Assembly: GCA_026388515.1 (NCBI GenBank) | Contig: JAPLJO010000040.1 | Coordinates: forward strand, 1,825 to 65,824 | From: Deltaproteobacteria bacterium | GTDB taxonomy: Bacteria > Desulfobacterota > Syntrophia > Syntrophales > UBA2210 | Direction of reading: 5' to 3' | DNA: 64,000 bases | Shown: positions 1 to 15,446 of the stretch, in pieces | How positions within the stretch are numbered: position 1 is the first letter of the stretch | How the letters are laid out: each line of letters begins with the position of its first letter | Position numbers and translations under genes: made by a program | Notes under the pieces: model-generated | Databases searched by the model: none | Told to the model about the DNA's origin: nothing | Seen by the model: the letters and a program-made list of their open reading frames with translations, nothing else

Positions 1-2
1 AG

Positions 3-251: not shown

Positions 252-375
252 CGAAGAAGAGAAACTATGAGAATGTAAACACAACATAACATCCTAATAT
301 CAATAGGAAAAACAGAATATGTTACGTATAGAAAGCTGTAATCTTATACAGATTGATTTATACCGTGGTATCTCA

Positions 376-434
376 TATTCTTCCACCACAAGGGGGCAAT
401 ACCACTTGAGGCTCATTTCACTCTGAGAATTGAC
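376..434. repeat. Copy A of a short dispersed repeat (core AGGGGGCAATACCAC ... TTGAGGCTCATTTCACTCTGAGAATTG)
   Basis: By-eye alignment to 7141-7222 gives about 80 percent identity in two blocks. Copy A lacks a 20-nt segment present in copy B. Confidence 0.6.
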
Positions 435-454
435 GCCTTCGTAAAAAGTCGATT

Positions 455-590
455 ATGCCCTGTTTTGTCATTCCGTGCTTGACACGGAATCCAGCGTTTC
501 ACTGGTTCCCGGTTTTCACCGGGACGACGTCTGGACTCCTGCTTTCGCAGGAGTGACGTTCTGGGGCTTTTTGCGAGTTCGTCAGAATTA
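455..590. repeat. Intergenic hairpin-array element (three consecutive short stem-loops)
   Basis: Stem-loops: ATTCCGTG-cttga-CACGGAAT (470-490), TCCCGGT-tttc-ACCGGGA (507-524), ACTCCTGC-tttc-GCAGGAGT (535-554). One frame reads VIPCLTRNP...WTPAFAGVT, the signature I recognise from hairpin-repeat elements often mis-annotated as hypothetical proteins in anaerobic proteobacterial and Nitrospirae-type genomes. Confidence 0.55.
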
Positions 591-687
591 ACTTATAAAG
601 TTTCCTGCCCACAATCCTACGGAATAGTCCCCACATTGCTTCCCTGAGATTTTCTTATCTTCATTACAATAGAAGTTCTTTTACCTC

Positions 688-716
688 TTCATTCCTATGT
701 AATGAGGGGCATTGCA
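688..716. repeat. Possible third, partial copy of the dispersed repeat core (GAGGGGCATTGCA)
   Basis: An 11-nt exact match GGGGCATTGCA to copy B (7164-7174) plus weak flanking similarity. It lies 15-25 nt upstream of the 731 start codon. Confidence 0.35.
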
Positions 717-730
717 TCAGGAGGTCAGAT

Positions 731-1162
731 ATGAATAACTTCACTGATAATTTCTGGAAGAAGTTCTTCGTCCTTGCTTCCCTCTGGAACATCTCTGCCG
801 CACCGCTGTGTCTGATATTATACATCTACTTTCCATCCCTTATTTATACATCCGAAGGGCTCCAATACACGCACAATCCTGTCTTTGACAGTTTCTATTA
901 TATTGTAGTTGGCGCTGTCTTATTATTCGGTGTCGGCTACTACATGCCGTCCCGTGACCTTATGCTGAACCGTGGGATCATCTGGCTCGGTGCCATCGCC
1001 AAGATAGGCTTGGCGGTTGTCATATTTCAAATGTACTTCTTAAAGTATCTCACACTGCTTGTTCCCATTCTTCTCGTGGGGGACATAATCTGGGCTCTGT
1101 TTTTCTTCGTCTTTCTCAACCAGACAAAAGACAGGGTAAAGGTTAACAACTTGGTAGGATAA
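731..1162 (+). CDS. Hypothetical small integral membrane protein (about 4 TM segments)
   Basis: AGGAGG sits 7 nt upstream of the ATG. The 143-aa product has four hydrophobic stretches. No family recognised. Confidence 0.6.
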   Translation: MNNFTDNFWKKFFVLASLWNISAAPLCLILYIYFPSLIYTSEGLQYTHNPVFDSFYYIVVGAVLLFGVGYYMPSRDLMLNRGIIWLGAIAKIGLAVVIFQMYFLKYLTLLVPILLVGDIIWALFFFVFLNQTKDRVKVNNLVG

Positions 1163-1231
1163 TAAAGGTTAATAGCTTGTAGGATAAGCTGGGTTTAATT
1201 CAGAACTGTCTTTTTGTGGGGATCTCAAACA

Positions 1232-4200
1232 ATGCAATGCCCAACCTGCAAAACAAAAAACCCTACAAAGAAGAAGTTCTGCGGGAAATGTGGCGCAAAG
1301 TTAGTTGCGCTCTGTCCCAACTGCCAAGCAGAGAATCCACCGGATGATAAATTCTGTGGTGACTGCGGTTACGATTTAAGCGTACCCGCTACTAAGGTCC
1401 CACAACCTCCTAAAGAAGAAACTCACCCTACTATTTTAATCACCGATCACGAACGTAAATACGTCACTGTCCTCTTCTCCGACCTCTCCGGCTACACCGC
1501 CATGACTGAGAAACTTGATCCGGAAGAAGTCAAAGAAATCATGGGCAGAATCTTTGGGGAGATTGCCCAGGTGGTGGTCAAATACGAGGGCTTTATTGAA
1601 AAGTTCGTGGGCGATGCCATCCTGGCCTTGTTTGGAGTTCCCAAAACCCACGAGGATGATCCTGTCAGAGCAATACGCGCTGCCCGTGAAATTCATGAAC
1701 TCGTAAGGAGAATGAGTCCTCCCCTTGAAAAGAGAATTGGAAGATCTCTCTATATGCACACCGGTATCAACACTGGCCTTGTAGTGACAGGTGAACTGAA
1801 TCTCGAAAAAGGGACTCACGGCGTTTTGGGAGATACAATCAACATGGCTTCCAGATTATCTGGTCTTGCCAAGACCGACGAAATAATCGTAGGTCTTGAA
1901 ACCCATCATCAGGCGGAGGGGTATTTTAATTTTGAAACAATTGAACCCGCCAAGGTAAAAGGTAAGGAAGAGGATATCCTGACTTATAAAGTCCTCTCCC
2001 CCAAGGAAGCTCCCACCAAAACTCATCGTTTATCAGGCGTCCGTGCGGAACTGATTGGCCGCCGTGTCGAAATGCGACAACTGAAAGAGGCTGTTGATAA
2101 TCTCAAGCAGGGCAGATCATCCATTTTCTCAATCGTGGGAGATCCTGGAACCGGGAAAAGCCGCCTTGTGGAAGAGTTCAGGAACAGTTTAGATCTTGCT
2201 GCCACCCAGTGGAGAGAAGGCCATGCCTACGCCTATTCACAGAACATACCGTACTTCCCCCTTATAGATTTACTTAATCGTGCCTGGCAGATCAAGGAAG
2301 GAGATCCTCCGGAACAGGTCAGGCAGAAGGTGGAGAAGGGAACTAAAGCCCTCATAGCTGACCGGGAAGAGCTGGTTCCTTACATGGGCAGTCTCTATTC
2401 TCTTCCCTATCCTGAAACTGAACAGGTAGGCCCTGAAACCTGGAAGGCACGGCTCCATGAAGCCATGCAGCTTATTGTCACCAACCTCTGCAAGAGAGCG
2501 CCTACGATTGTGTGTATCGAGGACCTTCATTGGGCAGATCCTTCATCCATTGAACTTCTGAAAAACATACTTACAGACCTCAAATTCCCTGTTCTTTTTA
2601 TCTGCATCTACCGTCCGTCCTTCAGCCTCTTCACCAGCCACCTGATAAGCAGTTTACGAACTTACCAAGAGATCAGACTCCAAGATCTTTCCTCCTCAGA
2701 GTCCCAGGATATGGTGGAATCACTGCTGAAGACTAAAGACATCCCCGCTGATTTAAGGAAGTTCATCCAGGACAAGGTGGAAGGCAATCCCTTTTATCTG
2801 GAAGAAGCCATCAACGCCCTTATTGAGTCAGATGTCCTGGTGCAGGAAGAGAATATATGGAAACTCACCAAACCGATAACCGAAGCTAATATACCCTATA
2901 CGGTACAAGGTATTATATCTGCCAGACTTGATCGATTGGAAAGAGAAACCAAGCGTATTCTCCAGGAAGCTTCGGTTATTGGTAGATCATTTTTGTATGA
3001 CATACTCAGAAGAATCACTGAATTGAAAGAACACGTTGACAGAAGTCTTAACGGACTGGAGAGGTTGGACCTTATCCGCACAAGAACCTTACAGCCTGAC
3101 CTGGAATATATCTTCAAACACGCCTTAACCCAGGAGGTAGTCTACAACGGGATATTGAGAAAAGAGCGTCAGCACATTCATGAAAAGATAGCTCAGGTGA
3201 TGGAGGAATTGTTTCATGACCGGCTGCCCGAATTCTATGAGACTTTGGCCTACCACTTCAGGCAGGGCCGTTCCATTATAAAGGCAGTGGATTACCTGAT
3301 GAAGGCTGCCGAGAAGAGTTTCAGTAGATATGCCGTTGATGAAGCACATGAGTACTATCGGGAAGCCTTTGACCTCCTTACCAGCAAGTCAGATAAATCT
3401 AAGGAAGAGAATAAACTTCTTGTCGATCTCCTCCTCGACTGGGCAGTGGTCTATTATCATCGGGGAATTTACAATGAACTGTTAGATTTATTTCAGAAAC
3501 ATAAAAATTTGGCCATATCTCTGGAGGATAATGCCAGACTGGGGATGTTTTATAATTGGATGGGCGGGGCATTAAACAGATTGGAGAGACTCCGGGAATC
3601 CTATCAATATTTGTCTAAAGCTCTTGAGATTGGAAAAGAGCTGGGGGATGAAAAAATAACCGGCTATGCATATGGTTGGCTCATCTATACCTGTGCTGAT
3701 CTCGGACGATTGGACGAAGCTGTTGAGTTTGGAGAGAAGGTAAAAGCATTGGACGTCTATAAGTCTGACAAGGAGCTTTTTAGACTATCAACAGTCGCAA
3801 TGGGAGGAACATACTTTTTCAGAGGAGAGGGAAGGAAAGCCCATGAAGAAGGGGATGTCCTTATGGAGTATGGTCAGAAGCACTCCGAAGGAGCATGCAT
3901 TACACAGGGCCACGAGACGCATGGAAATGGCTATATGGCAATCGGGGATATTCCCAACGCTATAGAGTGCTACAAGAGGACAATCCAAACTGCATTAGAA
4001 CCTGTATTTGCCATCACTGCAAAAGTATTTCTTGGATATGCCTATGTTGTCAATGGCCAGTATGCGGAGGCTGAAACTGTGCTGAATGAAGTAACAGAAC
4101 TTTGTGAACACCAAGGTTATGGTTTCATGGGAAGTGCCGCTAAGGCCTCATCAGGTATTGTCATGATCACCAAGGGGAATTTCGAGCAGGGGATTGAGGT

Positions 4201-4600
4201 CGTGAAAGATGTGATGAAAAGTTATATCAACAATGAGAGTTGGTGGAGATATGCCTTAGTGAATTCAATGCTCGGTAGGGTCTATCTGCAAATCTACCAG
4301 GCATTCGGGAATATGAATGATTTTTCATCCATGGGACAAAGTGCAGAGTTTCTTGTGAAGACCGCTCCTGTTGCTCATGAGAAGGCGGAGGTATATTTAA
4401 CGACGGCCATTAAGAAAGCAAAGGAAATTGGAGCAAGCAGTATTCACGGACAATCGTGTCTGGAAATGGGACGGTTGCATAAGCTGCGAGGGAAAACTGA
4501 CGATGCCAGAAAATACATCGCCGATGCAATCCACATCTTGGAGGAGTGTGAGGCTGATGTCTTCCTGAAGCAGGCCAAGGAGGAACTGGCTTCCCTTTGA
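1232..4600 (+). CDS. Double zinc-ribbon / class III adenylate-guanylate cyclase domain / AAA (STAND-type) NTPase / TPR multidomain protein
   Basis: N-terminal zinc ribbons: CPTC..CGKCG and CPNC..CGDCG. Cyclase motifs: VLFSDLSGYT, KFVGDAILALFG, GDTINMASRL. Walker A is GDPGTGKS and Walker B-like is CIEDLHWAD. A long TPR-like helical tail follows. I chose the ATG at 1232 rather than the track's TTG at 1214. Confidence 0.85.
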   Translation: MQCPTCKTKNPTKKKFCGKCGAKLVALCPNCQAENPPDDKFCGDCGYDLSVPATKVPQPPKEETHPTILITDHERKYVTVLFSDLSGYTAMTEKLDPEEVKEIMGRIFGEIAQVVVKYEGFIEKFVGDAILALFGVPKTHEDDPVRAIRAAREIHELVRRMSPPLEKRIGRSLYMHTGINTGLVVTGELNLEKGTHGVLGDTINMASRLSGLAKTDEIIVGLETHHQAEGYFNFETIEPAKVKGKEEDILTYKVLSPKEAPTKTHRLSGVRAELIGRRVEMRQLKEAVDNLKQGRSSIFSIVGDPGTGKSRLVEEFRNSLDLAATQWREGHAYAYSQNIPYFPLIDLLNRAWQIKEGDPPEQVRQKVEKGTKALIADREELVPYMGSLYSLPYPETEQVGPETWKARLHEAMQLIVTNLCKRAPTIVCIEDLHWADPSSIELLKNILTDLKFPVLFICIYRPSFSLFTSHLISSLRTYQEIRLQDLSSSESQDMVESLLKTKDIPADLRKFIQDKVEGNPFYLEEAINALIESDVLVQEENIWKLTKPITEANIPYTVQGIISARLDRLERETKRILQEASVIGRSFLYDILRRITELKEHVDRSLNGLERLDLIRTRTLQPDLEYIFKHALTQEVVYNGILRKERQHIHEKIAQVMEELFHDRLPEFYETLAYHFRQGRSIIKAVDYLMKAAEKSFSRYAVDEAHEYYREAFDLLTSKSDKSKEENKLLVDLLLDWAVVYYHRGIYNELLDLFQKHKNLAISLEDNARLGMFYNWMGGALNRLERLRESYQYLSKALEIGKELGDEKITGYAYGWLIYTCADLGRLDEAVEFGEKVKALDVYKSDKELFRLSTVAMGGTYFFRGEGRKAHEEGDVLMEYGQKHSEGACITQGHETHGNGYMAIGDIPNAIECYKRTIQTALEPVFAITAKVFLGYAYVVNGQYAEAETVLNEVTELCEHQGYGFMGSAAKASSGIVMITKGNFEQGIEVVKDVMKSYINNESWWRYALVNSMLGRVYLQIYQAFGNMNDFSSMGQSAEFLVKTAPVAHEKAEVYLTTAIKKAKEIGASSIHGQSCLEMGRLHKLRGKTDDARKYIADAIHILEECEADVFLKQAKEELASL

Positions 4601-4791
4601 TTAATGGTTGAATGCATGCATTTTGGAGAGAATAGCCGGCCCAACGATTAAAGGAAATTATCGTCTTGTTTTTCGTGGAAAAATAATCCTGTCAATTTAA
4701 GTGAAATAATGGCGGTATTCTCAGTCCTAATGTGATACGTGCACTCGTACTGGATTGGGAGAAAAATAATTATGTGGAGAAAGGGACCCTG

Positions 4792-6144
4792 ATGAAGCCG
4801 CATCATCTCAAGGTGTTTTTAATAATCGCGATAGTGCTCTTTCAATCTCAAATTTTTTCACCCAGGAATGTGTATGCCTGGACGGAGCAGCCTCTCATTT
4901 CATATCGGATACTTCAAGTAATCCCGGAAGTGCGCAATGCAGAGCCGGTAGTTGTGGAAGACCTCGATTCATTTCTTATAGCCGAAGAAAAGAACCTTGC
5001 AGATTTGCTCGCACAAGAGGAAAAATGGGCGCGGCAGAATCTTTCATACTACAAGCCCCTGCCTGATGTGCTGGCATTCCAGCCAACCGGCTACCGCAGT
5101 GACGTACGGCAACGCTTCTGTCACGCCATCAGAGTCAATCCCGACTTTTACTTCAGCTTGTATCTTCAGTTGGTGCCGGGTGAAGATGCCGGCGGCAGGA
5201 CCGCCATTACGCCGAGGGAAATCACGTTTCTCAAAGACACCTCGGACTGGAAAAATACGAAATTTGCAGAACTGATTGCAGGGGAATCAGTATCTTCCCT
5301 TGATGTGGTAGTGACAGCAACTGAAGAACCGGATTTTGGCCTGGACGTGGGGCTGTATGAAGATAACGGCACTGATTTCGGAAAAGTGTATGGATTCGGC
5401 ACACAACCATTCGGGAATCCGAACCTCGAGTATGGCACCCAGGCACCTTTCCACATGGGGTACTACCATGAAGCGGGCATCATCAACACCTTTGCTGAAT
5501 TCATAACGCAGACATACCCTGAATACCGCATACATCTCTATCAGAGTCTCTCACGCTTTGCGTTTGAGACCGGACATAACTACTGGGGGTGGCGTTTCAT
5601 GGGTATGGGCCTTCAATACGTCATAGATTTAAACCAGCCCTATCATGTGAGTCTGTTGCCCGGCGTCAGTGTTGTAAAGATGATCTGGATGAGTATGCTT
5701 GATATGGTAGGAATCAGCGGTCCTAAAGCCGATGCTATTCAGCTTGTCTCAAACAGACACACGGCACTGGAAAAATTCCAGCAACTCATTCTTTATCGCG
5801 CGTATCAGGACGAAGTCAACGACAGTCCCATATTCGTGGTGCTGCGTACTATAGGGGAATGCCCACCATGGAATGATAGGATGCCACGTGATGTCATTAC
5901 AGTAGAGAGCTGTGCGCGTGCCAGGGAAACAGACAGGCTTCTTGAGGAGACAATGCCGGAGCGCTTCGTATCCGATCCAAGCTTCGAACTCGGCACCAGT
6001 CCCGAAAGAGACGATATAATTTTGAGGATACAGGAAAAGGGTGGACAGCAAGCAATCGACCGACTGACTGCTCAGGTGCGGGATCTCCTTAAACCGCTTC
6101 CCTCGTATACGTGTTCATATGTCAGAAGTATCAGGAATAAATAG
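4792..6144 (+). CDS. Secreted protein with zinc-dependent phospholipase C / S1-P1 nuclease-fold-like motifs (tentative)
   Basis: The signal peptide MKPHHLKVFLIIAIVLFQSQIFSPRNVYA|WTEQ would expose an N-terminal Trp, as in mature Bacillus PLC. MGLQYVIDLNQPYH resembles LSLHYLGDVNQPMH. RHTALEKF resembles HSKYENF (H-x3-E). Some ligand positions are not conserved. Confidence 0.5.
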   Translation: MKPHHLKVFLIIAIVLFQSQIFSPRNVYAWTEQPLISYRILQVIPEVRNAEPVVVEDLDSFLIAEEKNLADLLAQEEKWARQNLSYYKPLPDVLAFQPTGYRSDVRQRFCHAIRVNPDFYFSLYLQLVPGEDAGGRTAITPREITFLKDTSDWKNTKFAELIAGESVSSLDVVVTATEEPDFGLDVGLYEDNGTDFGKVYGFGTQPFGNPNLEYGTQAPFHMGYYHEAGIINTFAEFITQTYPEYRIHLYQSLSRFAFETGHNYWGWRFMGMGLQYVIDLNQPYHVSLLPGVSVVKMIWMSMLDMVGISGPKADAIQLVSNRHTALEKFQQLILYRAYQDEVNDSPIFVVLRTIGECPPWNDRMPRDVITVESCARARETDRLLEETMPERFVSDPSFELGTSPERDDIILRIQEKGGQQAIDRLTAQVRDLLKPLPSYTCSYVRSIRNK

Positions 6145-6171
6145 CCTACACTATTGATAGTGCGACTTTAC

Positions 6172-6933
6172 TTACATTCCCATCATGGAGCGAATCTCAG
6201 CATACTGCAGGTTGTACACCTGCAGGTAGTTGCCGGCGATCCATTGATTTTCAGCCTCCCAGTAATCATTTCGGTATCCCCCCTGCTGCACCTTGTTGGC
6301 CGCAAGGGTCAACATAATGGCCTGATCCTTCTGCCGTGCGGTGAATTTAACAGGAACACCCGCCCAGTCGATGATATTATCAAGAAGCGCTCCGCTGCTG
6401 GCGTACTGGTATGGTTCATAATACATGCGTTCCTTATCGGTGTAGGTACGTATCGTTTTCTTATCGTACTTGTCCACAATAGTGATGGAACGATAGGGAC
6501 GATAAGCAACCGCAAACAAGGTATATCCTTCCCCCTTCGCACCCTTGGCAGTATCGATGCTTGTCAATATGTAGTCCCAGGAATTAGGAATATCGGAAGC
6601 TTTCAGTATCCTCTGGAAGCTCTGAGTCGCCTGCTCCATTGTAGTAAATGCCTGGCCCGTATCGCCATCAGGAGAAACAACGTAGAAATTCTGGTTGTAT
6701 GCCGCACGATAGGTATCCGCTATGGTAATGGGTTTTCCGGCGATGAGCAGTTGTTTGTTGATTTCCTGTAATCCCGTGTCCGCTTCGACAAAGTAAGTTA
6801 ATGCCGCCATACCTTGTCCGAACCCCACCGCCATCTGTGTCCCTGTCATAGTACCCATTGAAGCAACGTTAAGCGGACAGGCATACAGACATATTGCCAG
6901 TAACAGTGAGAAAATCAGATATATTTTCTTCAT
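6172..6933 (-). CDS. Hypothetical secreted protein / possible lipoprotein
   Basis: N-terminal signal MKKIYLIFSLLLAICLYAC with a possible lipobox (LYAC). The composition is protein-like and the opposite-strand ORF looks spurious. No family recognised. Confidence 0.65.
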   Translation of the reverse strand: MKKIYLIFSLLLAICLYACPLNVASMGTMTGTQMAVGFGQGMAALTYFVEADTGLQEINKQLLIAGKPITIADTYRAAYNQNFYVVSPDGDTGQAFTTMEQATQSFQRILKASDIPNSWDYILTSIDTAKGAKGEGYTLFAVAYRPYRSITIVDKYDKKTIRTYTDKERMYYEPYQYASSGALLDNIIDWAGVPVKFTARQKDQAIMLTLAANKVQQGGYRNDYWEAENQWIAGNYLQVYNLQYAEIRSMMGM

Positions 6934-7140
6934 AATGTCACCCCACGTCTTTTGTTGTTAAAGATGAAACCCGAACAGGTAAAACGTGTACTGACCTCAA
7001 GAAAGCCACATTATAGAAAGAAATAGAAGAGGAGGTTTGAATAGTATGGTTTATTGTAACACAAGAACGGTAGAATTCAAGGATATTAACCGTTTTCTTT
7101 TCTTCCATTCATTAAATACATATTGACTTTCCTCCTGCAT

Positions 7141-7222
7141 ATTTCTTATTCTACCTCCGCAAGGGGGCATTGCAACTTGTCGAAATTTCCTCATATTGAG
7201 GTTCATTTCGTCCAGAATTGTA
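7141..7222. repeat. Copy B of the dispersed repeat (core AAGGGGGCATTGCAAC ... TTGAGGTTCATTTCGTCCAGAATTG)
   Basis: Aligned by eye with 376-434. It lies about 190 nt upstream of the patatin gene start and inside a 68-codon minus-strand ORF (7051-7257). Confidence 0.6.
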
Positions 7223-7405
7223 TAATATCCAAAAACTCCATCCGATATTCGATTCATACATTGCCTCCCAGACAGTTTATATATCCAATCACTGTGAAGA
7301 CGTTTTCATCTGGGATGGTATACTTCGATAGATTTGAAATGACTTCATGAGTCACAGGCGTCTCTTCTTTTCCGATTTTGTCGTCAATCAGGAGATAGAA
7401 TCTCT

Positions 7406-9613
7406 ATGATTATAGCGAATCAAAATGAAATTGCCCGCTTGCTATCAACAATATTTCCCCCGGATTCTTCGGAGAAATTTGCCGAGTCATTATTGGGCGA
7501 AATAGCTCCTCATGCAGAAAAGATGAATCTTCGTGAAAGAGACATTCTCATCCGTCAGGGTGATTCGAGTTTTTCAATTTATTATGTGATGAATGGGCGC
7601 TTTCATGTAATGACAGAACAGCCTGACGGAAGTACAACAGTAGTGGCAGAAATTGGACCGGGGGAACCAATCGGTGAGATACAGGCGCTGACAGGGGGCG
7701 TCCATACCGCGAATGTTCAAGCTGCCACTGATTCCACGGTAATCAAGCTGTCACAAAGAGCTGTTGAAATCATTATGGAGAAGGCGCCTGAGACTGTACA
7801 CCGACTATTGAAAACTGCCCGCATGCGCCTTCTGCGCAGCCAGTTGGCAATTTTGCTGCCCTCACTATTCGATTCACTCGATGACGAAGCGCTCCGGGAT
7901 ATACAGGGTAAGGTTCAATGGCATCATCTGCGCAGTGGGGAGATGCTTTTCCGCGAAGGCGACCCAGGCGACAGACTCTATATCGTAATACTCGGGCGCC
8001 TGCGGGTAACTCTCGAGGATAGCAAAGGAGAAAAAATAATAAATGAGGTGGCACGGGGAGAGATTATCGGTGAAATGGCGCTTTTCTCGTCCGAGCCGCG
8101 TTCCGCAACGGTGTATGCCGTGCGCGATTGTGACCTTGTCAGTATCTCACAGCCGGCGTTTGATGAGATTATAAAAAAATATCCCCAGGTGATGAGGACG
8201 ATAACCAAAGTACTCATCAACCGGCTTGCGAGGAGGAATCGTGAGGTGCCGAGTAAAGGCAGTGTCACAAATATTACGGTCATTCCCGCGAGCTACAATG
8301 CACCTGTCCATGAGTTTTCCGTCAGATTGTCAAAGGCACTCTCACTCCACGGCAAAGTTCTTCATATAACCGGCAGACTTGTCTGTGATAAATTCGGCAC
8401 TTCCCTGCTTCGAGATCCAGTGCCAAAGGAAACGTTGCAGGTAAAACTCGCGGCGTGGCTGGATGAGCAGGAGACAAAATATCCTTTCATCATTTACGAA
8501 GCCGACCCATCTTTATCACCGTGGACGCTGTGTTGTCTAAGCCAGGCGGATCAGATTCTGGCACTGGCACAAGCTTCGGACACGCCCGGATATGGTCCTG
8601 TGGCTTCATCGGTGCTTCCTTCGGTCACTCGCGCAACATGTTCAATGGTGATCCTCCATCCAGAGAGCGAAACGCTCCCATCCAATACCGGTGAATGGTT
8701 GAGGTCCTGGAATGCCGTGGACCATCAGCATGTCCACTGGGACATTACTTCTGATATCGAGCGCGTAGCACGTTACATTACGAACACATCAATGGGCCTT
8801 GTCCTTAGTGGTGGCGGGGCGCGGGGATTTGCTCACATCGGTGTGATTCGCGCCCTTAGAGAAGGAGGTATCCCTATTGATATGATCGGCGGAACGAGTA
8901 TGGGTGCTGTGATTGCAAGCGCCTATGCCTTGGGATGGGACGATCAGAAAATATATGATGAGACAAAAAACATTTTTTTTATAAATAATCCACTCAGTGA
9001 TTACACGTTTCCAATCGTATCTTTTTTCCGATGCCGCAATCTTGATAGAGTGCTTGAAAATAGTTACGGCGATACCTGCATAGAAGATCTCTGGATACGC
9101 TACTTCTGCATATCAACCAATCTCTCAATCGCCGAGATTGAAATACATGATCGTGGTTCATTGTGGAAGGCCGTACGCGCAAGCATCTCATACCCCGGTA
9201 TTGCCGTCCCTGTGGTGAAAGGCAACCATTTGTTGATTGACGGTGGTGTACTCAATAACCTTCCTATTGATATCATGAAAAAGCGCTGCAGGGGATCGGT
9301 TATTGCAGTAGATGTGAGCATCGAAGAAGACCTTACCGTAAATTATCCGGAAGTTCCCTCACCATGGAGAATGCTCTGGGACCGCGTTTCTCCGGTTAAG
9401 AAATACAGTAAATTTCCCAACATTCTGGATATTCTCACACGAACGGCAGAATTAAGCTGCATCAACAGGAAACAACAAACAATAGTGGACGCTGACTTAT
9501 ATCTGCGCCCTCCGGTTGATAATTTCAAGCTCCTGGATTTTAAATCGTTCGATAAGCTCGTTGATATCGGCTACGCCTACGCAAAAGAGGAAATAAAGAA
9601 GTGGGATAATTAA
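7406..9613 (+). CDS. Patatin-like phospholipase with two N-terminal cyclic-nucleotide-binding domains (NTE/PNPLA6-like architecture)
   Basis: CNB cassettes: GEPIGEIQALTGGVHTANVQA and GEIIGEMALFSSEPRSATVYA. Patatin motifs: SGGGARGFAHIGV (oxyanion), GTSMGA (GxSxG) and IDGGVLNNLP (catalytic Asp). AGGAGA RBS is present. Confidence 0.9.
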   Translation: MIIANQNEIARLLSTIFPPDSSEKFAESLLGEIAPHAEKMNLRERDILIRQGDSSFSIYYVMNGRFHVMTEQPDGSTTVVAEIGPGEPIGEIQALTGGVHTANVQAATDSTVIKLSQRAVEIIMEKAPETVHRLLKTARMRLLRSQLAILLPSLFDSLDDEALRDIQGKVQWHHLRSGEMLFREGDPGDRLYIVILGRLRVTLEDSKGEKIINEVARGEIIGEMALFSSEPRSATVYAVRDCDLVSISQPAFDEIIKKYPQVMRTITKVLINRLARRNREVPSKGSVTNITVIPASYNAPVHEFSVRLSKALSLHGKVLHITGRLVCDKFGTSLLRDPVPKETLQVKLAAWLDEQETKYPFIIYEADPSLSPWTLCCLSQADQILALAQASDTPGYGPVASSVLPSVTRATCSMVILHPESETLPSNTGEWLRSWNAVDHQHVHWDITSDIERVARYITNTSMGLVLSGGGARGFAHIGVIRALREGGIPIDMIGGTSMGAVIASAYALGWDDQKIYDETKNIFFINNPLSDYTFPIVSFFRCRNLDRVLENSYGDTCIEDLWIRYFCISTNLSIAEIEIHDRGSLWKAVRASISYPGIAVPVVKGNHLLIDGGVLNNLPIDIMKKRCRGSVIAVDVSIEEDLTVNYPEVPSPWRMLWDRVSPVKKYSKFPNILDILTRTAELSCINRKQQTIVDADLYLRPPVDNFKLLDFKSFDKLVDIGYAYAKEEIKKWDN

Positions 9614-9717
9614 ATGCAGGACACCGTAAAATACTGAATTGATAGAAGTGACATGAGCACGCAGTAGGTCATCCTGAAAATTCTTCTTATTTTGAATCAC
9701 GTCAGGAGATATTGAAA

Positions 9718-10359
9718 ATGCATCATGATGCAGACGCACGGTATGGGACGATTCCGGTGAAAGACAAGGTAGAATTTCTCACGGGCGTGTACGACAGGAT
9801 GACTGCGCTCAACACCAATGCCGATACCAAGGCGGGTGTCATGCTTACCTTCCACAGTATCTGGGCCATCTGCTTCGGCCCGAACGTTACGAAATTGATT
9901 ATCCAGCTTCCCGCACCACCGCTCAAAATGACTCTGTGGGTGGTGTCGTTTCTGTTAACTTGTGCCCTGTTTATCGCATTCATCCGTTCAGCATATTAGG
10001 CTGTCCTGATACTCCTGCCCAGGATTGATGCTCAAAAAGGTGAGGAACCAGCGAAACGGAGCCTCGTCTTTTTTGTCGATGTTGTTAAAATAGCAGGGAC
10101 CAATGTCGCCGAGAAATCAGCAAATTACAAAAAGCAGCTTGACAGAACAAGCTATGAGGACCTTGTCGATGACCTTGTGTATCGAATCAACGATATCGCC
10201 AATGTAGTGAATCAGAAATATGAGTGCACGAAAAAGGCAATAAAGCTCTCGCTATACACGTTTCTCCTGTGGGCAATCTCTCTTTTCTCAGTGATTATTA
10301 TGAACATGTTCTGGAGTGGGGGATACATTCATGCAATGCCCGAAATGCCAATTCGATAA
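9718..10359 (+). pseudogene. DUF5706/PycTM-like (Pycsar-effector-type) multi-TM protein interrupted by a single in-frame TAG at 9997-9999
   Basis: Track ORFs 9712-9999 and 10177-10359 are in the same frame, and the 177 nt between them has no other stop. The joined product has NADTKAGVML, ..LLPRID..SLVFFVDVV.. and DLVYRINDIANVVNQKYECTKKA, which match my recollection of the DUF5706/PycTM pattern. Confidence 0.55.
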
Positions 10360-10414
10360 TCCTGATGGACTTAACTTCTGCGGTCAATGTGGTTGCCAGT
10401 TAGAACAAACATGA
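10331..10414 (+). pseudogene. 27-codon zinc-ribbon stub, likely the truncated N-terminus of a larger zinc-ribbon protein
   Basis: MQCPKCQFDNPDGLNFCGQCGCQLEQT* parallels the cyclase N-terminus MQCPTCKTKNPTKKKFCGKCGAKL. It stops after one ribbon and overlaps the upstream gene end by 29 nt. Confidence 0.35.
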
Positions 10415-10534
10415 GTTGATACCGAAATTCAGTAAATGGTTAGTGAATTTATAAATAGTTAATAGGGAATGTCTTCGCGAAGGATGAGAAGAAACAGGAC
10501 AATACCCTTGTAAAGCCCGCGTCGGTTGGGGTTC

Positions 10535-10963
10535 TTACATGTGGTAGAGTTCGCTGCCGAGAATTCGAATCCAGTTGTTCTTCAGTACTTTCAGTGCCTG
10601 TTCCACAGGCTCCACGCCCAGAATCAGCACGGTGATTTCACCGGTCCCGATGCAGGGATATATGTAATCAACATTGATAGTGGCTTTCTTGAGCGGTTTG
10701 AGTACGGCGTTCAGTCCGCCGGGATGGTGCGGTACCACGCAGGCAATGACATCTTTTACATCAATGGCGTATCCCGCGGTCTTCATCACGTTGATTGCTT
10801 TTTCAGGGTCATTGGCGACAAAGTGCAGCTTTCCTTCTTTGCCCTGTGCGGTGAAGTAAAACGCGATGATATTAATCCCGTTGGTCCCTAAAAGGTCGCT
10901 GACACTCGACAGTGTACCGGGTTCGTTTTTCAGGGAATGGTCAATCTGTTTGACGGTTTTCAT
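10535..10963 (-). CDS. ACT-domain (small-molecule-binding) protein, tandem ACT
   Basis: Two repeats of the ACT-like pattern (LKNEPGTLSSVSDLLGTNGINI.. and PHHPGGLNAVLKPLKKATINV..). AAGGAG RBS is present. It is last in the oxidoreductase operon. Confidence 0.7.
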   Translation of the reverse strand: MKTVKQIDHSLKNEPGTLSSVSDLLGTNGINIIAFYFTAQGKEGKLHFVANDPEKAINVMKTAGYAIDVKDVIACVVPHHPGGLNAVLKPLKKATINVDYIYPCIGTGEITVLILGVEPVEQALKVLKNNWIRILGSELYHM

Positions 10964-10965
10964 CT

Positions 10966-11514
10966 TTACGCTCCTTTAATCACAAGCTCGGCACCGAGAG
11001 TGAGGCTCTTTTCGTTGATGGCCATTATGTCGGATTTTTTGCCTTTGAAAATTTCATGAAGAGCCTTCACGATTGATTCAATTGATGTCATTTTGGTGGC
11101 GGCGATAAATCCTCCGAGCATGATGATGTTGACGGAACGGTCATCGTTGAAATGTTTCTTCGCCAGTTCGTTCGCCGGTACACGATATACGGTGATGTCA
11201 TCGCGCGATGTTTTACGGTCGACGAGACTGGAGTTCAGCACAATCAGCCCACCTCTCGTGAGGGCACTCTCAAATTTGATAAGCGAGGGATTGTTCAATA
11301 TGACCGCATGGTCGGGGGACGATGCGACGGGCGAGAAGATTTCTTCATCGGAAACGGCGATCGTGCAGTTCGCGGTACCTCCCCGCATTTCCGCGCCGTA
11401 TGACGGAAGATAGGTCACTTCCTTGCCTTCCCTCATCGCCGCCACGGCGTACAGGTACCCCATCATGAGTACACCCTGGCCACCGAATCCTGCGAAGACG
11501 GTTTTTTTCAACAT
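10966..11514 (-). CDS. 2-oxoacid:ferredoxin oxidoreductase, gamma subunit
   Basis: FAGFGGQGVLMMG..LPSYGAEMRGG is typical of POR/KOR gamma subunits. The operon order delta-alpha-beta-gamma resembles OorDABC/KorDABG. Confidence 0.85.
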   Translation of the reverse strand: MLKKTVFAGFGGQGVLMMGYLYAVAAMREGKEVTYLPSYGAEMRGGTANCTIAVSDEEIFSPVASSPDHAVILNNPSLIKFESALTRGGLIVLNSSLVDRKTSRDDITVYRVPANELAKKHFNDDRSVNIIMLGGFIAATKMTSIESIVKALHEIFKGKKSDIMAINEKSLTLGAELVIKGA

Positions 11515-11525
11515 GGCTAAACGAC

Positions 11526-12281
11526 CTATTGTATCTTATCTCCCACAGTGTCCTTGATGACTTTGAGGGGGTATGTTTTCGTAATGGTTTCCTCTATCCA
11601 TTTACAGGAATCGACGGTGTTCATCTTCCAGTTCGTAGGGCAGGGCGAGAGTACCTCGACAAGGGAAAAACCAAGACCCGCCATCTGGATTTTAAATGCT
11701 CTGGTGATGGCTCGTTTCGTCTTCCTGATGTTTGCCGGGCTGTTCACCGTCGTCCGTTCAATGTAGACGCTCCCTTTTGTGAGGGCAAGCATCTCGCTCA
11801 GGTCAATGGGAGCTCCGTCCCGTGCGTAATCGCGTCCGCCGGGTGTGGTTGAAGAGTTCTGGCCGATGAGCGTCGTCGGCGCCATCTGTCCCCCCGTCAT
11901 TCCGTAGCAGCCGTTGTTCACAAAAATGGTGGTGATGTTTTCACCGCGATTTGCCGCGTGAATCGTCTCCGCGGTACCGATCGCCGCGATATCGCCGTCA
12001 CCCTGGTAGGTGAAAACCACTCTGTCGGGCAGAGACCGTTTGATGCCCGTTGCCACGGCGGCACATCTCCCGTGGGGTGATTCTCCCATATCGATGTCGA
12101 GATAATCGTAGGCAAGCACCGCACAGCCGGCGGGAGGCACTCCCACCACCTTGTGGGCAATGTCAAGTTCTTCTATGATTTCCGCAATCAGGCGGTGCAG
12201 GATGCTGTGGCCGCACCCCGGGCAGTAGTGAAACACGGCTTTTTTCAGTAATTTCGGTCGCTCAAAAACCTTTTTCTCCAT
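11526..12281 (-). CDS. 2-oxoacid:ferredoxin oxidoreductase, beta (TPP-binding) subunit
   Basis: It has the CPGCGH motif, the GDGD..AIG TPP-binding motif and VNNGCYGMTGGQ. Confidence 0.9.
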   Translation of the reverse strand: MEKKVFERPKLLKKAVFHYCPGCGHSILHRLIAEIIEELDIAHKVVGVPPAGCAVLAYDYLDIDMGESPHGRCAAVATGIKRSLPDRVVFTYQGDGDIAAIGTAETIHAANRGENITTIFVNNGCYGMTGGQMAPTTLIGQNSSTTPGGRDYARDGAPIDLSEMLALTKGSVYIERTTVNSPANIRKTKRAITRAFKIQMAGLGFSLVEVLSPCPTNWKMNTVDSCKWIEETITKTYPLKVIKDTVGDKIQ

Positions 12282-13364
12282 CTATTGTTCCTCTTCAAGG
12301 TTCTGGCGGTAGTAGAGGCTGCTGATCACCTTCGATATTTCATCGGGGGTGGAAATAATGCCGCCCGGCCGCCCGTAAAAATGCACCTTGCTTCTTCCTT
12401 CGAGAGAGAGCTTCACATCTTCAACCATTTGACCTGTACTCATTTCGAACACGAGAAAATGCTTTACAATCCTGCTCAATTCAACAATGGCGCCCTTGGG
12501 GAAAGGATAGAGTGAAATGGGGCGCAGGAGGCCCACCTTCAATCCCATTTCGCGCACTCTCTTTATGGCCCCCTTGGCGATTCGTGCCGCCGTGCCGTAG
12601 GCGATGACCACGAGGTTGGCGTCGTTCGTCAGATAGCTTTCATGCAGGATAAGGTCTCTGGTGATGCTTTCGTATTTTCGTTGCAGCTTCCAGTTGTGTT
12701 CTTCCATGTCGCGGGTATCGAGGATGAGCGACTTTATGAACCGGCTCGGACGCTGCGAGGCGCCATTGAGGATGTATGATTTTGGAGGTAGTGAGCGGGG
12801 ATCGATGGGTTCAGGGAGTATCACCGGTTCCATCATCTGGCCCATCATGCCATCGATGAGAATGATGACGGGAGATCGGTACCGGTCGGCACACTCGAAG
12901 GCTTTTACCGTCAGATCCGCCTGTTCCTGCCCTGAGGCGGGTGCCAGCACGATTGAATGGTAATCACCATGGCCGCCGCCTTTTGTCGCCTGAAAATAGT
13001 CGCCCTGGGCGGGAGCGATGTTGCCGAGACCCGGTCCGCCTCTCATTGTATTGATGATGACTGCGGGCAGTTCTGATGCCGCAAGGAATGAGATGCCTTC
13101 CTGTTTAAGGCTGAGACCGGGGCTTGAAGAACTCGTCATGGCACGGGCGCCCGTCATGGCGGCACCGAGTACCATGTTGATCGCGGCGATCTCGCTTTCC
13201 GCCTGGATAAACGTGGCGTCGCTTACTTTTGCCATGGCGCCCGCCATGTACTCGGTCAATTCATTCTGCGGTGTGATGGGATACCCCGCGTAGAAACGGC
13301 AGCCGGCACGGATTGCAGACTCGGCGATCACGTGGCTCCCACGCATCAACATCTTTTCACTCAC
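12282..13364 (-). CDS. 2-oxoacid:ferredoxin oxidoreductase, alpha subunit
   Basis: The N-terminus LMRGSHVIAESAIRAGCRFYAGYPITPQNE is typical of alpha subunits. It abuts the beta gene with no gap. Confidence 0.9.
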   Translation of the reverse strand: MSEKMLMRGSHVIAESAIRAGCRFYAGYPITPQNELTEYMAGAMAKVSDATFIQAESEIAAINMVLGAAMTGARAMTSSSSPGLSLKQEGISFLAASELPAVIINTMRGGPGLGNIAPAQGDYFQATKGGGHGDYHSIVLAPASGQEQADLTVKAFECADRYRSPVIILIDGMMGQMMEPVILPEPIDPRSLPPKSYILNGASQRPSRFIKSLILDTRDMEEHNWKLQRKYESITRDLILHESYLTNDANLVVIAYGTAARIAKGAIKRVREMGLKVGLLRPISLYPFPKGAIVELSRIVKHFLVFEMSTGQMVEDVKLSLEGRSKVHFYGRPGGIISTPDEISKVISSLYYRQNLEEEQ

Positions 13365-14429: not shown

Positions 14430-15428
14430 ATGAATGCCATCCCGGGCCCTGATGACAGAGTGCTTCTCATAGGCAACTATACCCATCTGTTTCCCTTTAT
14501 AATCGGCGGGAGTGCGCTTCTCGATCATTTCAAGCCCATTGACAGGATCGATCACTGGGAAGGCGGCGCCTATCTGTACCAGGGCGGATATCTCGATCTC
14601 GTCAGGAAAATAGCTCTCTCGACCAGGCGTGATTTCGATGAATGGGGCGCGAAGGAGGTGGTCTTTCTCACCGATGCAGTACACCATCTTTGCAGCTCGG
14701 TACATCCCCGTGAGATGGGAGTATCTCATGAAAGAACGTTCGTCACTCTTAATGAGTGGCTCGCCGGAGAGCTTCAAGCGGGGGCCATTACCTTGCCTGC
14801 GGCACCCCTCGGCATGAGGGTGACCGTGCACGATAATTGCTATTCCAAGGTACACGGCGGATTGTACTGGGATACTCCCCGGGAACTGCTTCAACGGTGC
14901 GGCTGCACGGTGGTCGAGATGCGCCACATAAAAAAGGATTCGCTCTGCTGCGGCTTCGGTGCGGGTGCGTCATGGGTCCGGAACATGTCAATGCCCTTTG
15001 ACATCATATCGGAAGGGGCAAAAAAGATACGCGAAGCGGAAGACACCGGTGCGGAGGCGCTTGTTTCCTATTGCAGCGGGTGCATCTATCTTTTATGGGC
15101 GGCGCGCGAGCTGACGGGAAGCAAGATAAAAATTTACCATCTCCTTGAAGTCGTCAGAATGGCGATGGGTGAAACAATCAACTACCCGGAGGACCACGTG
15201 CGAAGGGCCTGGGATGTCATCGCGATTATCACCTACCAGCTCGGCATCTCTCTCTTTCAGAAGAATTTCTTTATAAAAGAACTATCCTATGATAACAGCA
15301 AATCAACATTTTCGCCTGGAAACCGGAGGATCCTGAAATCAATTCGATGGATCCTCGGTCCGCTGGTAATGCGGGCTGTCTACGGACGTGTATTCAGGGC
15401 GATGATGCCTTTGATAAGGACCCGCTGA
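14430..15428 (+). CDS. CCG-domain (cysteine-rich, heterodisulfide-reductase D-like) protein, C-terminal part of the split Fe-S protein
   Basis: HDNCYSK...LCCGFGAG...YCSGC is a CCG-domain signature. It starts 9 nt after the TGA in the same frame, and no clear RBS is visible. Confidence 0.6.
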   Translation: MNAIPGPDDRVLLIGNYTHLFPFIIGGSALLDHFKPIDRIDHWEGGAYLYQGGYLDLVRKIALSTRRDFDEWGAKEVVFLTDAVHHLCSSVHPREMGVSHERTFVTLNEWLAGELQAGAITLPAAPLGMRVTVHDNCYSKVHGGLYWDTPRELLQRCGCTVVEMRHIKKDSLCCGFGAGASWVRNMSMPFDIISEGAKKIREAEDTGAEALVSYCSGCIYLLWAARELTGSKIKIYHLLEVVRMAMGETINYPEDHVRRAWDVIAIITYQLGISLFQKNFFIKELSYDNSKSTFSPGNRRILKSIRWILGPLVMRAVYGRVFRAMMPLIRTR

Positions 15429-15446
15429 TTTCGGGAGGCACAGGCG

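Follow-up and report, generated by a model that had tools for sequence, protein, structure and literature searches.

A soluble bacterial NTE-family patatin with two non-equivalent cyclic-nucleotide-binding domains, encoded near a STAND-type cyclase

The 735-residue protein encoded at 7406..9613 on the plus strand of the window (the whole 64,000-nucleotide stretch of DNA analysed here, from a Deltaproteobacteria bacterium) is a soluble bacterial member of the neuropathy target esterase (NTE; PNPLA6-like) family and is ordinary within that very large family. It carries two tandem cyclic-nucleotide-binding (CNB) domains in front of a patatin lipase domain. Judging from its sequence, the second of them, CNB-2, is likely the true sensor of a cyclic nucleotide (cNMP), with every canonical contact to a 3',5'-cyclic nucleotide kept. 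Which ligand binds, how the enzyme is activated and what it does in the cell are inferred from the architecture, its conservation and the neighbourhood statistics. They point to a lipase that may be gated by a cNMP through CNB-2, in a locus that may form a Pycsar-like module with the phospholipase as a second effector, and we regard the case for this reading as evenly balanced.

The reading frame starts with ATG and is preceded by an AGGAG ribosome binding site at 7390-7394, 11 nt 5' of the start. Its product is identical to NCBI MCX5851162.1, a record that already carries the same annotation and name. Three Pfam families were matched: cNMP_binding in two stretches (E=7.6e-44, 148 bits), NTE_Ploop (PF24179) at residues 289-457 (E=5.6e-34, 118.3 bits against a cut-off of 27) and Patatin at residues 465-623 (E=1.2e-33). 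The scores are far above the gathering cut-offs, and the matches are therefore not due to chance. The chain runs from CNB-1 through CNB-2 and the NTE P-loop-like domain (8270..8776, plus strand), which joins the sensor to the lipase, to the patatin catalytic domain (8798..9274, plus strand). The sequence features of the NTE branch are present, namely the patatin motifs, a P-loop-like domain directly before the patatin domain and an N-terminal CNB fold. The reading frame, its translation and the Pfam matches confirm the patatin gene with two CNB domains that the initial annotation had placed here. No transmembrane segment was found in the protein (the 19-residue Kyte-Doolittle maximum is 1.38). 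Its AF2 model has a mean pLDDT of 82 and a pTM of 0.77.

The catalytic residues of the patatin domain are complete, as had been claimed earlier. The oxyanion hole GGGARG spans residues 469-474 (8810-8827), the nucleophile motif GTSMG residues 496-500 (8891-8905) with Ser498, and DGG residues 612-614 (9239-9247) with Asp612. In a 32-sequence alignment, G469-G471, S498, D612 and G613 are invariant. By these motifs, the domain is a patatin-type serine lipase with a predicted Ser498-Asp612 dyad and an oxyanion hole at residues 469-474. The nearest solved catalytic structure is that of PlpD (5FQU/5FYA; E=2.6e-27, TM-score 0.81 on the target), whose solved chains (about 250-314 residues) cover no more than the patatin domain of the protein. 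The RssA model, with a profile of 301 positions, scored 90.3 bits against an equivalog cut-off of 272 bits. To our knowledge, neither PlpD nor RssA has CNB or P-loop-like domains.

The two CNB domains differ in their phosphate-binding cassettes. CNB-1 covers residues ~25-145 (7478..7840, plus strand); it corresponds to the first cNMP_binding stretch, with limits taken from jackhmmer, and is modelled by AF2 as a beta-sandwich with helices. CNB-2 covers residues ~150-280 (7853..8245, plus strand), with the best cNMP_binding stretch at 173-259 and a C-helix at residues 249-278. The cassette of CNB-2, GEMALFSSEPRSATVYA (residues 222-238; 8069..8119, plus strand), has the canonical form Gly-Glu ... 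Arg-[Ser/Thr]-Ala, with Gly222, Glu223, Arg232, Ser233 and Ala234. In CNB domains of known structure, the Gly, Glu, Arg and Ser residues are conserved and contact the ribose and the phosphate (PMC11224242). G222, E223, R232 and A234 are invariant in the 32-sequence alignment, and CNB-2 also resembles the CNB portion of PycTIR as modelled in PADLOC (E=1.6e-34). The cassette of CNB-1, GEIQALTGGVHTANVQA (residues 90-106; 7673..7723, plus strand), keeps Gly90-Glu91 and Thr101-Ala102 and lacks the cassette arginine: in an alignment of 117 sequences, His100 falls in the column of the phosphate-contacting Arg. The initial annotation had described both of these cassettes in the same way.

This difference is a property of the whole family and no peculiarity of this gene. 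Across the 117 sequences, the Arg column of CNB-2 holds Arg in 116 and His in one, whereas that of CNB-1 holds 54 Arg, 33 Tyr, 21 His, four Pro and two Asn. Within the protein's own clade (at least 46% identity), the CNB-1 column contains nine His, three Pro, two Asn and a single Arg, so that Arg is missing in 14 of 15; in 113 of 169 wider relatives the CNB-1 cassette cannot be aligned at all. Because the phosphate-clamping Arg is lost in the clade and the cassette is unalignable in most of the wider family, CNB-1 is most likely an accessory module, which may be of low affinity, differently tuned or purely structural. The earlier proposal of one sensing site beside a degenerate or differently tuned one fits this pattern of conservation.

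The best fold matches for residues ~25-280 are the tandem CNB-A/B domains of PKA-R and PKG, which share the logic of two linked sites with the present protein. PKA-R keeps Arg at both CNB sites. In the 735-residue protein, by contrast, the N-terminal site has His, and the output is a covalently attached lipase instead of a released kinase. The closest architectural relatives are PNPLA6/NTE, PNPLA7 and Drosophila Swiss-cheese, which likewise combine N-terminal CNB domains, PF24179 and a Ser-Asp patatin domain. The bacterial protein is shorter (~735 residues against ~1300 in animal NTE) and lacks the N-terminal transmembrane anchor of the ER-bound animal enzyme; the missing anchor sets it apart from animal NTE but not from the bacterial branch. 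We take Rv2565 to be another NTE-family protein. It has been named as a CNB protein with a functional tie to a cyclase-like gene (PMC4886424). Animal NTE has three CNB domains (PMC9025805), whereas the protein described here has two. In the searchable literature, we found no bacterial NTE member with demonstrated nucleotide gating.

A class III cyclase of 1128 residues, encoded at 1214..4600 on the plus strand, is the candidate signal source. Its sequence agrees fully with NCBI MCX5851159.1 (1122 residues) over 99% of the length, and it combines a zinc ribbon, a Guanylate_cyc domain (residues 81-259), an AAA_16 STAND NTPase and TPR repeats. D90, K130, D134, N210 and R214 are retained, together with a Walker A motif at residues 309-316. 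Lys130 aligns with a Glu of the guanylyl cyclase Cya2 (2W01) and corresponds to Lys in the adenylate-cyclase fusion entry 6FHT. This residue lies at the purine-specifying position and suggests a purine product, probably derived from ATP. The PycC models scored about 50 bits or less against this cyclase. The two proteins are the sole cyclase and the sole CNB protein in the window.

The cyclase gene lies 2.8 kb 5' of the patatin gene. Two unrelated genes separate them, one of which is on the opposite strand. The first of these (4732..6144, plus strand) encodes a 470-residue protein with an N-terminal hydrophobic segment (hydropathy peak 1.78 at residue 26). The second (6172..6933, minus strand) encodes a 253-residue protein with a signal- or lipoprotein-like N-terminus and splits any operon of cyclase and patatin. 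The NCBI numbering (...159 for the cyclase and ...162 for the patatin) leaves space for exactly two intervening genes. Neither protein could be assigned to a family, as no match was found in Pfam, NCBIfam or PADLOC, and no homologue of either was present in any of 176 fetched loci. A conserved role for the two genes was considered and rejected on these grounds. An AT-rich stretch of 472 bp (6934..7405) precedes the patatin gene and offers space for a promoter of its own (GC=0.37 over 6901-7500). The Rfam search of 1-11000 gave no family at E<=0.1, so no regulatory RNA was found 5' of the patatin gene, and the matches in promoter and terminator scans were no commoner than in shuffled sequence. 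The cyclase and patatin genes form no operon and are not co-transcribed. With one cyclase in 64 kb, such closeness has a chance of ~9%, and the spacing in the window alone does not reach significance. An integrase remnant at 3-251 and a lower GC content over 1-10.5 kb fit a genomic island.

Evidence for a link comes from other loci of the family. A class III cyclase is present at 23 of 165 non-redundant CNB-NTE loci, which are not phylogenetically independent. Per 100 kb, there are 5.3 cyclases within 1 kb of the CNB-NTE gene and 0.14 at 5-10 kb, an enrichment of ~38-fold (binomial p=8e-7, again over loci that are not phylogenetically independent). At seven loci, a cyclase on the same strand ends within 11 bp upstream of the CNB-NTE reading frame or overlaps it. 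At L088, a locus of the closest clade, a cyclase overlaps the CNB-NTE start codon. Three of the four other informative close relatives (at least 46% identity) have a cyclase nearby, which is of the STAND type in two. Five cyclase-STAND paralogues surround the CNB-NTE gene at L081, and cyclases of the same family flank it on both sides at L086; both loci are devoid of PycTM. Single-linkage clustering of the neighbours put sensor kinases and GGDEF proteins, which are unrelated, into one group with the cyclases, and the size of the resulting 36-locus cluster was therefore not used as evidence. CNB-lipoxygenase and CNB-PP2C, other enzymes fused to CNB domains, cluster at the same loci.

The initial annotation had named the CNB-patatin as the most plausible receiver of the cyclase product. 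The proposal gains from the enrichment and from the absence of any other cyclase or CNB protein in the window, but it is weakened by the lack of an operon, by the three nearest homologues of the cyclase (L169-L171), none of which has a CNB protein within 10 kb, and by a rival receiver that the annotation had overlooked. This is a PycTM-family gene (a Pycsar membrane effector) at 9718..10359 on the plus strand, 104 bp downstream of the patatin gene. The gene is broken by an in-frame TAG at 9997-9999, where the intact homologues of 198 residues have Gln, and the loss of its own stop codon has extended it. Its sequence is a chimera of both tandem copies present in a sister strain. Read through the TAG, it matches the PADLOC PycTM model (E=5.2e-21, covering 3-156 of 160) and Pfam PF18967 (31.2 bits against a cut-off of 27.2). 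In the sister strain (L172), the patatin gene is followed by two intact PycTM genes in synteny with the window, and the patatin protein is 97% identical over the C-terminal 358 residues. In three of three independent contexts (L173, L174 and L175/L176), a gene of this PycTM subfamily immediately follows a member of the same cyclase-STAND family, and PycTM is for this reason a rival receiver of the cyclase signal. No PycTM gene was found at the other 168 CNB-NTE loci searched.

The direct pairing of the cyclase family with PycTM also favours a housekeeping explanation, which we consider a serious contender although somewhat on the unlikely side. The protein would be a cNMP-regulated (lyso)phospholipase that serves lipid homeostasis or stress and responds to the cell-wide cAMP pool; the STAND-cyclase would be a coincidental neighbour, with PycTM as its cognate effector. 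The missing CNB neighbours of the three nearest cyclase homologues and the opposite-strand gene between cyclase and patatin are consistent with this explanation, as is the role of the eukaryotic NTE/PNPLA6-7 proteins in lipid homeostasis. The distribution of the family points in the same direction. More than 6000 homologue clusters have the same three Pfam families, and PF24179 is present in 120 of 120 among the homologues listed; the family is spread across phyla with a single conserved architecture. Its neighbourhoods are heterogeneous (HSP20, acetyl-CoA hydrolase and SDRs), a relative at 46% identity being placed among HSP20 and acetyl-CoA-hydrolase genes, and for 86% of the CNB-NTE loci the sampled flanks contain no cyclase. 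Of 72,556 plasmid records, 28 contain the family, and most of these are chromids; phages yielded no full-length copy. This rarity is unlike typical mobile defence cargo. A metagenome scan with the single protein as the query gave no matches, and a repeat with the clade alignment gave only relatives at 43% identity or less. Against the housekeeping explanation stand the ~38-fold excess of cyclases within 1 kb relative to 5-10 kb, which includes several gene pairs that overlap, the cyclase-STAND genes around CNB-NTE at L081 and L086 of the protein's own clade, where PycTM is absent, and the same-strand order of patatin and then PycTM, which is preserved in the sister strain.

If the lipase is gated through CNB-2, activation could proceed as follows. 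A cNMP would bind to CNB-2; cAMP is the most likely one, owing to the Lys at the purine-specifying position of the nearby cyclase. Binding would shift the C-helix of CNB-2, which leads straight into the P-loop-like domain, and this movement may relieve an autoinhibition of the patatin domain or drive oligomerisation or membrane recruitment. The patatin domain would then hydrolyse (lyso)phospholipids. On the side of the cyclase, the TPR and NTPase part may oligomerise on a trigger and so allow the cyclase domains to pair into active dimers. The CNB-patatin and, in the original state of the locus, the PycTM membrane effector would both respond to the product, which would make the locus a Pycsar-like island for signalling or defence with the phospholipase as a second effector. 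A more specific version, in which a purine cNMP made by the STAND-cyclase activates the CNB-patatin alongside or in place of PycTM in an undescribed Pycsar-like signalling or abortive-infection system, is put forward only tentatively, and we think it rather unlikely.

The proposed locus shares with Pycsar the scheme of a cyclase of the class III fold, which would make a 3',5'-cNMP, and an effector that would read it by a CNB domain. The likeness extends to the PycTM-family gene directly downstream of the patatin gene and to the pairing of the cyclase family with PycTM elsewhere. In contrast to Pycsar, the cyclase of the window shares its chain with a zinc ribbon, a STAND NTPase and TPR repeats, cyclase and effector do not share one operon, and the PycTM gene is interrupted by TAG. 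The Pycsar cyclase product is cCMP or cUMP, while Lys130 points to a purine here. The described effectors of Pycsar are PycTM and PycTIR only (PMC11224242), and the abstract on Pucsar likewise names TIR and TM effectors; a patatin output is absent among these.

Alternatively, the CNB domains may sense no nucleotide and act as autoinhibitory or protein-interaction modules, with the lipase under the control of a partner protein, a lipid or phosphorylation; we consider this improbable. Direct regulation of NTE-family catalysis by cNMPs is not established in animals. The lysophospholipase activity of PNPLA7 was unchanged by cNMP analogues (PMC5704489), and the regulatory region of SWS/NTE binds a PKA catalytic subunit (PMC9025805). 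CNB folds can also be retuned, as is indicated by trypanosome PKA-R structures, which are titled cAMP-independent and inosine- or guanosine-bound, and by a triple mutant with a newly introduced Arg (T318R), whose structure contains a ligand (both according to the PDB titles). The lack of the phosphate-clamping Arg in CNB-1 agrees with such a role. However, the contact set of CNB-2 is complete, and its near-universal Arg and invariant Gly, Glu and Ala are hard to explain without binding of a cyclic phosphate. The cyclase enrichment beside CNB-NTE genes likewise argues for a cNMP ligand.

A CapV-type effector of CBASS, which would answer a cyclic oligonucleotide, is suggested by the patatin domain and by weak matches to the PADLOC phospholipase effectors (E=1.3e-10) and to CBASS_lipase of NCBIfam, but this assignment is effectively refuted and was rejected: the CBASS_lipase score (NF041079) of 32.6 bits falls short of the 200-bit cut-off, the patatin domain is nearer to RssA and PlpD, and no CD-NTase-type family was detected in the 16 larger ORFs of 1-25.6 kb by Pfam or in the seven ORFs near the gene by PADLOC and NCBIfam. 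Sensing would occur here through CNB domains, which the 317-position CBASS_lipase profile is too short to hold, and we know of no CNB domains in CapV. The homology to CapV is limited to the patatin core, and the messenger of CapV comes from a CD-NTase. CapV, too, is a lipase with the patatin fold; a nucleotide second messenger activates it, and its action harms the membrane (PMC12480259). Of the two parallels drawn in the initial annotation, the NTE-like architecture is upheld by the presence of PF24179, and that with CapV is an analogy only.

The combination of a STAND-cyclase, a CNB-patatin and PycTM suggests that a phospholipase effector and a STAND sensor may belong to the repertoire of cNMP-based defence modules of the Pycsar type; neither appears in the Pycsar descriptions consulted. 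Whether the CNB domains of the NTE family, including those of the human disease gene PNPLA6, bind cNMPs, and how such binding would affect the enzyme, is the question that these genes address. The bacterial CNB-NTE members beside a cyclase are small and soluble test cases, for which we predict that CNB-2 binds and CNB-1 does not. If the undescribed Pycsar-like system with the CNB-patatin as its effector is real, the protein would be the first natural case of NTE-family CNB domains acting as real nucleotide sensors and would provide a tractable bacterial model for the regulation of human PNPLA6/NTE.

The patatin gene (7406..9613, + strand) encodes a protein of 735 residues from an ATG start, with AGGAG lying 11 nt 5' of the start codon, and is preceded by its own AT-rich upstream region of 472 bp. 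The reading frame and motifs quoted in the initial annotation were all recovered in the translation: GGGARG (residues 469-474), GTSMG (496-500), DGG (612-614), the CNB-1 cassette GEIQALTGGVHTANVQA (90-106) and the CNB-2 cassette GEMALFSSEPRSATVYA (222-238). The Pfam domain matches were far beyond chance, with cNMP_binding in two stretches (E=7.6e-44), the P-loop-like domain of the neuropathy target esterase (NTE) family, PF24179, at residues 289-457 (E=5.6e-34) and the Patatin domain at residues 465-623 (E=1.2e-33). No hydrophobic segment of membrane-span length was found by hydropathy. An AlphaFold2 model built with 32 homologues was confident (mean pLDDT 82, pTM 0.77). For the N-terminal third, the closest solved folds were the tandem CNB-A/B domains of PKG and of PKA regulatory subunits; for the catalytic domain, the closest was the patatin-like PlpD. 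The solved-fold matches included no full-length structure of the NTE family. The Ser-Asp catalytic set of a patatin lipase is intact.

NCBI MCX5851162.1, encoded on a 69-kb contig of a Deltaproteobacteria MAG, has the identical sequence, and a homologue search returned 6195 clusters at E<=1e-10. Each of the 120 matches listed has these three Pfam families, and their length is almost always 720-780 residues. Relatives occur in representative genomes of Nitrospirota, Thiotrichaceae, Chloroflexota, Acidobacteriota, Gemmatimonadota, Myxococcota, Actinomycetota, Bacteroidota and many Proteobacteria. The proposed NTE-family architecture therefore holds, and the branch to which the protein belongs is a large and known bacterial one; the protein shows every defining sequence feature of this branch that was tested. 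The patatin gene adds one more member to a family already known and annotated, whose bacterial members are called CNB-NTE here.

The two CNB domains differ in conservation. The phosphate-clamping Arg of CNB-2 is present in 116 of 117 aligned sequences, and Gly222, Glu223, Arg232 and Ala234 of this domain are invariant in an alignment of 32 sequences. In solved CNB domains, the Gly/Glu/Arg/Ala positions make the contacts to the phosphodiester and to the ribose 2'-OH (PMC11224242). The equivalent column of CNB-1 in the same alignment holds R (54), Y (33), H (21), P (4) and N (2); in the 15 sequences that share 46% identity or more with the patatin protein, it holds H (9), P (3), N (2) and R (1). 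The Arg of CNB-1 was lost in the clade of the patatin protein, where the replacement residue is not itself fixed, and the remaining cassette (Gly-Glu ... Thr-Ala-x-Val-x-Ala) is retained. Judged from sequence, CNB-2 is canonical and CNB-1 degenerate, and the conservation pattern lends good support to the earlier proposal of one putative sensing site and one degenerate or differently tuned site. This non-equivalence is a family-wide trait, not one particular to the patatin gene of the window. In the wider family, the CNB-1 cassette could not be aligned at 113 of 169 loci, and many of the relatives concerned match only from about residue 150 on, which suggests single-CNB forms. Trypanosome PKA-R structures are titled in the PDB as cAMP-independent and inosine- or guanosine-bound, and a triple mutant introducing an Arg (T318R) is also titled as solved with bound ligand. 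Because these structures bind inosine or guanosine, other ligands are possible for CNB folds, and by analogy CNB-1 need not be inert. In the wider-family alignment, His replaces Arg at the CNB-2 phosphate-binding position in 29 of 169 proteins; the same set includes variants of the catalytic motifs (GTSIG in 42, DGA in 37). In a sub-branch of the wider family, canonical cNMP binding may have been lost completely.

The window holds only one cyclase and one CNB protein, the patatin protein. The cyclase gene (1214..4600, + strand) encodes 1128 residues comprising a double zinc ribbon, a class III cyclase domain (residues 81-259), an AAA_16 STAND NTPase and TPR repeats, all assigned with Pfam. The metal-binding residues D90 and D134 are retained, as are those of the transition state (Asn210, Arg214) and the Walker A motif, and the protein is predicted to be a competent STAND-fused class III enzyme. 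Lys130 aligns with a Glu of the guanylyl cyclase Cya2 (2W01), and its equivalent is Lys in an entry named bacteriophytochrome-adenylate cyclase (6FHT). Therefore, Lys130 points to ATP as the substrate, and the predicted product is most likely cAMP. The cyclase and patatin genes are not one operon: they are 2.8 kb apart, and two genes intervene, one of 470 aa with an N-terminal hydrophobic segment (4732-6144, + strand) and one of 253 aa with a signal- or lipoprotein-like N-terminus (6172-6933, - strand). Neither had a match in Pfam, NCBIfam or PADLOC, or a homologue at any comparison locus.

The 2.8-kb spacing is not significant alone. We searched the flanks of 168 loci encoding CNB-NTE relatives with an iterated cyclase profile, and three duplicate contigs were taken out to leave 165 non-redundant loci, many of them on short contigs. 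A class III cyclase was found at 23 of the 165. Cyclase density was 5.3 per 100 kb within 1 kb of the CNB-NTE gene, 0.82 at 1-2.5 kb, 1.43 at 2.5-5 kb and 0.14 at 5-10 kb; the excess within 1 kb has a binomial p of 8e-7, calculated over loci that are not phylogenetically independent. At seven loci, a same-strand cyclase overlaps the CNB-NTE reading frame or ends <=11 bp upstream of it. Across the family, the adjacency of cyclases to CNB-NTE genes is non-random. The patatin protein had been proposed as the most plausible receiver of whatever the neighbouring cyclase makes, and the proposal is partly supported: this enrichment favours it, but the two genes share no operon, and none of the three nearest cyclase homologues on long contigs has a CNB protein within 10 kb. 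With 6496 clusters at E<=1e-20, the family to which the cyclase belongs is very large, and identities of 55-65% are frequent in it.

Among the closest relatives whose context is usable, some loci show the linkage. At comparison locus L081 (1-22232), the CNB-NTE gene, which is 49% identical, has around it five cyclase-AAA_16-TPR paralogues, of which one bears an N-terminal TIR domain. L086 has cyclases of the window family on both sides of the CNB-NTE gene, and at L088 a cyclase overlaps the CNB-NTE start codon. No cyclase was found at L082-L084, which belong to the same group of close relatives. L081 also holds a MalT-WHD/BTAD STAND protein and an RHH/ParE toxin-antitoxin pair. Elsewhere, a CNB-lipoxygenase (L044, 7520-9964) and a CNB-PP2C/SpoIIE phosphatase (L007, 12166-13452) lie near a CNB-NTE gene and a cyclase; loci with such additional CNB-fused enzymes look like cNMP-signalling gene clusters.

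A gene of the PycTM family, a Pycsar membrane effector, which the initial annotation had overlooked, lies 104 bp 3' of the patatin gene (9718..10359, + strand) when an in-frame TAG (9997-9999) is read through. This frame matches the PADLOC PycTM model (E=5.2e-21, positions 3-156 of 160) and Pfam PF18967 (31.2 bits, cut-off 27.2). Intact homologues have 198 residues and a Gln at the stop position, which implies a change of CAG to TAG. A sister strain (L172), whose protein is 97% identical to the patatin protein over the C-terminal 358 residues, keeps the patatin-PycTM arrangement with two tandem copies, PycTM-a (1182-1778) and PycTM-b (1833-2429), followed as in the window by ACT and 2-oxoacid:ferredoxin oxidoreductase genes. 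The window gene is a chimera of which residues 1-29 are identical to copy a and the rest is ~96% identical to copy b. Its own stop codon is lost, and the frame extends 17 codons further. These three signs, the chimera, the nonsense codon and the stop loss, mark the window copy as decayed.

The same PycTM subfamily lies directly 3' of a cyclase-STAND gene of the window family in three independent contexts. In L173 (4290-8597), a TIR-cyclase-AAA_16-TPR gene is 91 bp upstream of PycTM; L174 (366-8597) has two fragmented copies; and in L175 (4617-8597) and L176 (4064-8044), near-identical contigs counted as one context, a zinc ribbon-cyclase-AAA_16-TPR gene is 12 bp upstream. The recurrent module of this cyclase and a 198-aa PycTM looks like a STAND-regulated form of Pycsar. 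An Apyc1-like metallo-beta-lactamase-fold gene lies near the module of L173 (299-1138). No PycTM gene was found at the other 168 CNB-NTE loci searched. From the PycTM and CNB-NTE contexts together, the cyclase-STAND family therefore has two recurrent kinds of partner, and the window has both. PycTM is a rival, or former co-receiver, for the cyclase product.

The left edge of the window truncates a tyrosine recombinase gene (Phage_integrase), of which the 3' end is present (3-251, + strand). GC content over 1-10.5 kb lies mostly between 0.42 and 0.51, lower than the 0.52-0.57 of the neighbouring oxidoreductase genes (~11.1-13.5 kb). Together, these suggest a genomic island of the cyclase, the two intervening genes, the patatin gene and PycTM. 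Its left border falls outside the window, and on the right neither a tRNA nor an att repeat was identified. The flanking anaerobe core genes (10535-13364, - strand; 14430-17843, + strand) encode an ACT-domain protein, a 2-oxoacid:ferredoxin oxidoreductase operon, a CCG-domain protein and a glycyl-radical (PFL-like) enzyme, in an order common to the sister strain.

The locus resembles Pycsar in its overall logic and its CNB sensor, the CNB part of the patatin protein matching the PycTIR model (E=1.6e-34), and in the PycTM gene that adjoins the patatin gene. However, the effectors described for Pycsar are limited to the TM and TIR types (PMC11224242), and the abstract of the Pucsar preprint names the same two, whereas the candidate effector here is a patatin. 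The cyclase also differs: it is STAND-fused, has a purine-type residue and shares no operon with the patatin gene. The idea of a cyclase beside a gene of this kind has a precedent, because M. tuberculosis Rv2565 is already on record as a CNB protein with an associated cyclase-like gene (PMC4886424).

A tentative reading, possible rather than probable, is that the locus is a Pycsar-like system in which a STAND-class III cyclase makes a purine cNMP that switches on the CNB-patatin, beside or in place of PycTM. A trigger sensed by the TPR/STAND part would cause the cyclase to oligomerise; the active sites of class III cyclases form at the dimer interface. The cNMP, probably cAMP, would bind CNB-2, whose C-helix (residues 249-278) runs into the P-loop-like domain and would pass on the change. 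The patatin domain would then be released or assembled and hydrolyse (lyso)phospholipids, and the outcome would be either CapV-like membrane damage (PMC12480259) or lipid remodelling like that of animal NTE (PMC9025805).

Several observations stand against a defence role for the whole CNB-NTE family. The family is ubiquitous; its neighbours are mostly heterogeneous, metabolic or stress genes; plasmids seldom carry it (28 of 72,556 records, most of them non-mobilizable chromids); and no full-length copy was found in the phages searched. Direct cNMP control of catalysis is not established for the mammalian enzymes; the activity of PNPLA7 was unchanged by cNMP analogues, but its localisation shifted (PMC5704489). 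The parallel to CapV of CBASS drawn in the initial annotation fails as a matter of membership, the score of the patatin protein (32.6 bits against a cut-off of 200) ruling out a CapV identity.

The interest of the patatin gene lies in its locus context and not in the gene itself. Judged from gene neighbourhood only, the STAND-cyclase, the CNB-patatin and the decayed PycTM may be a variant of the Pycsar kind that uses a phospholipase as its effector.
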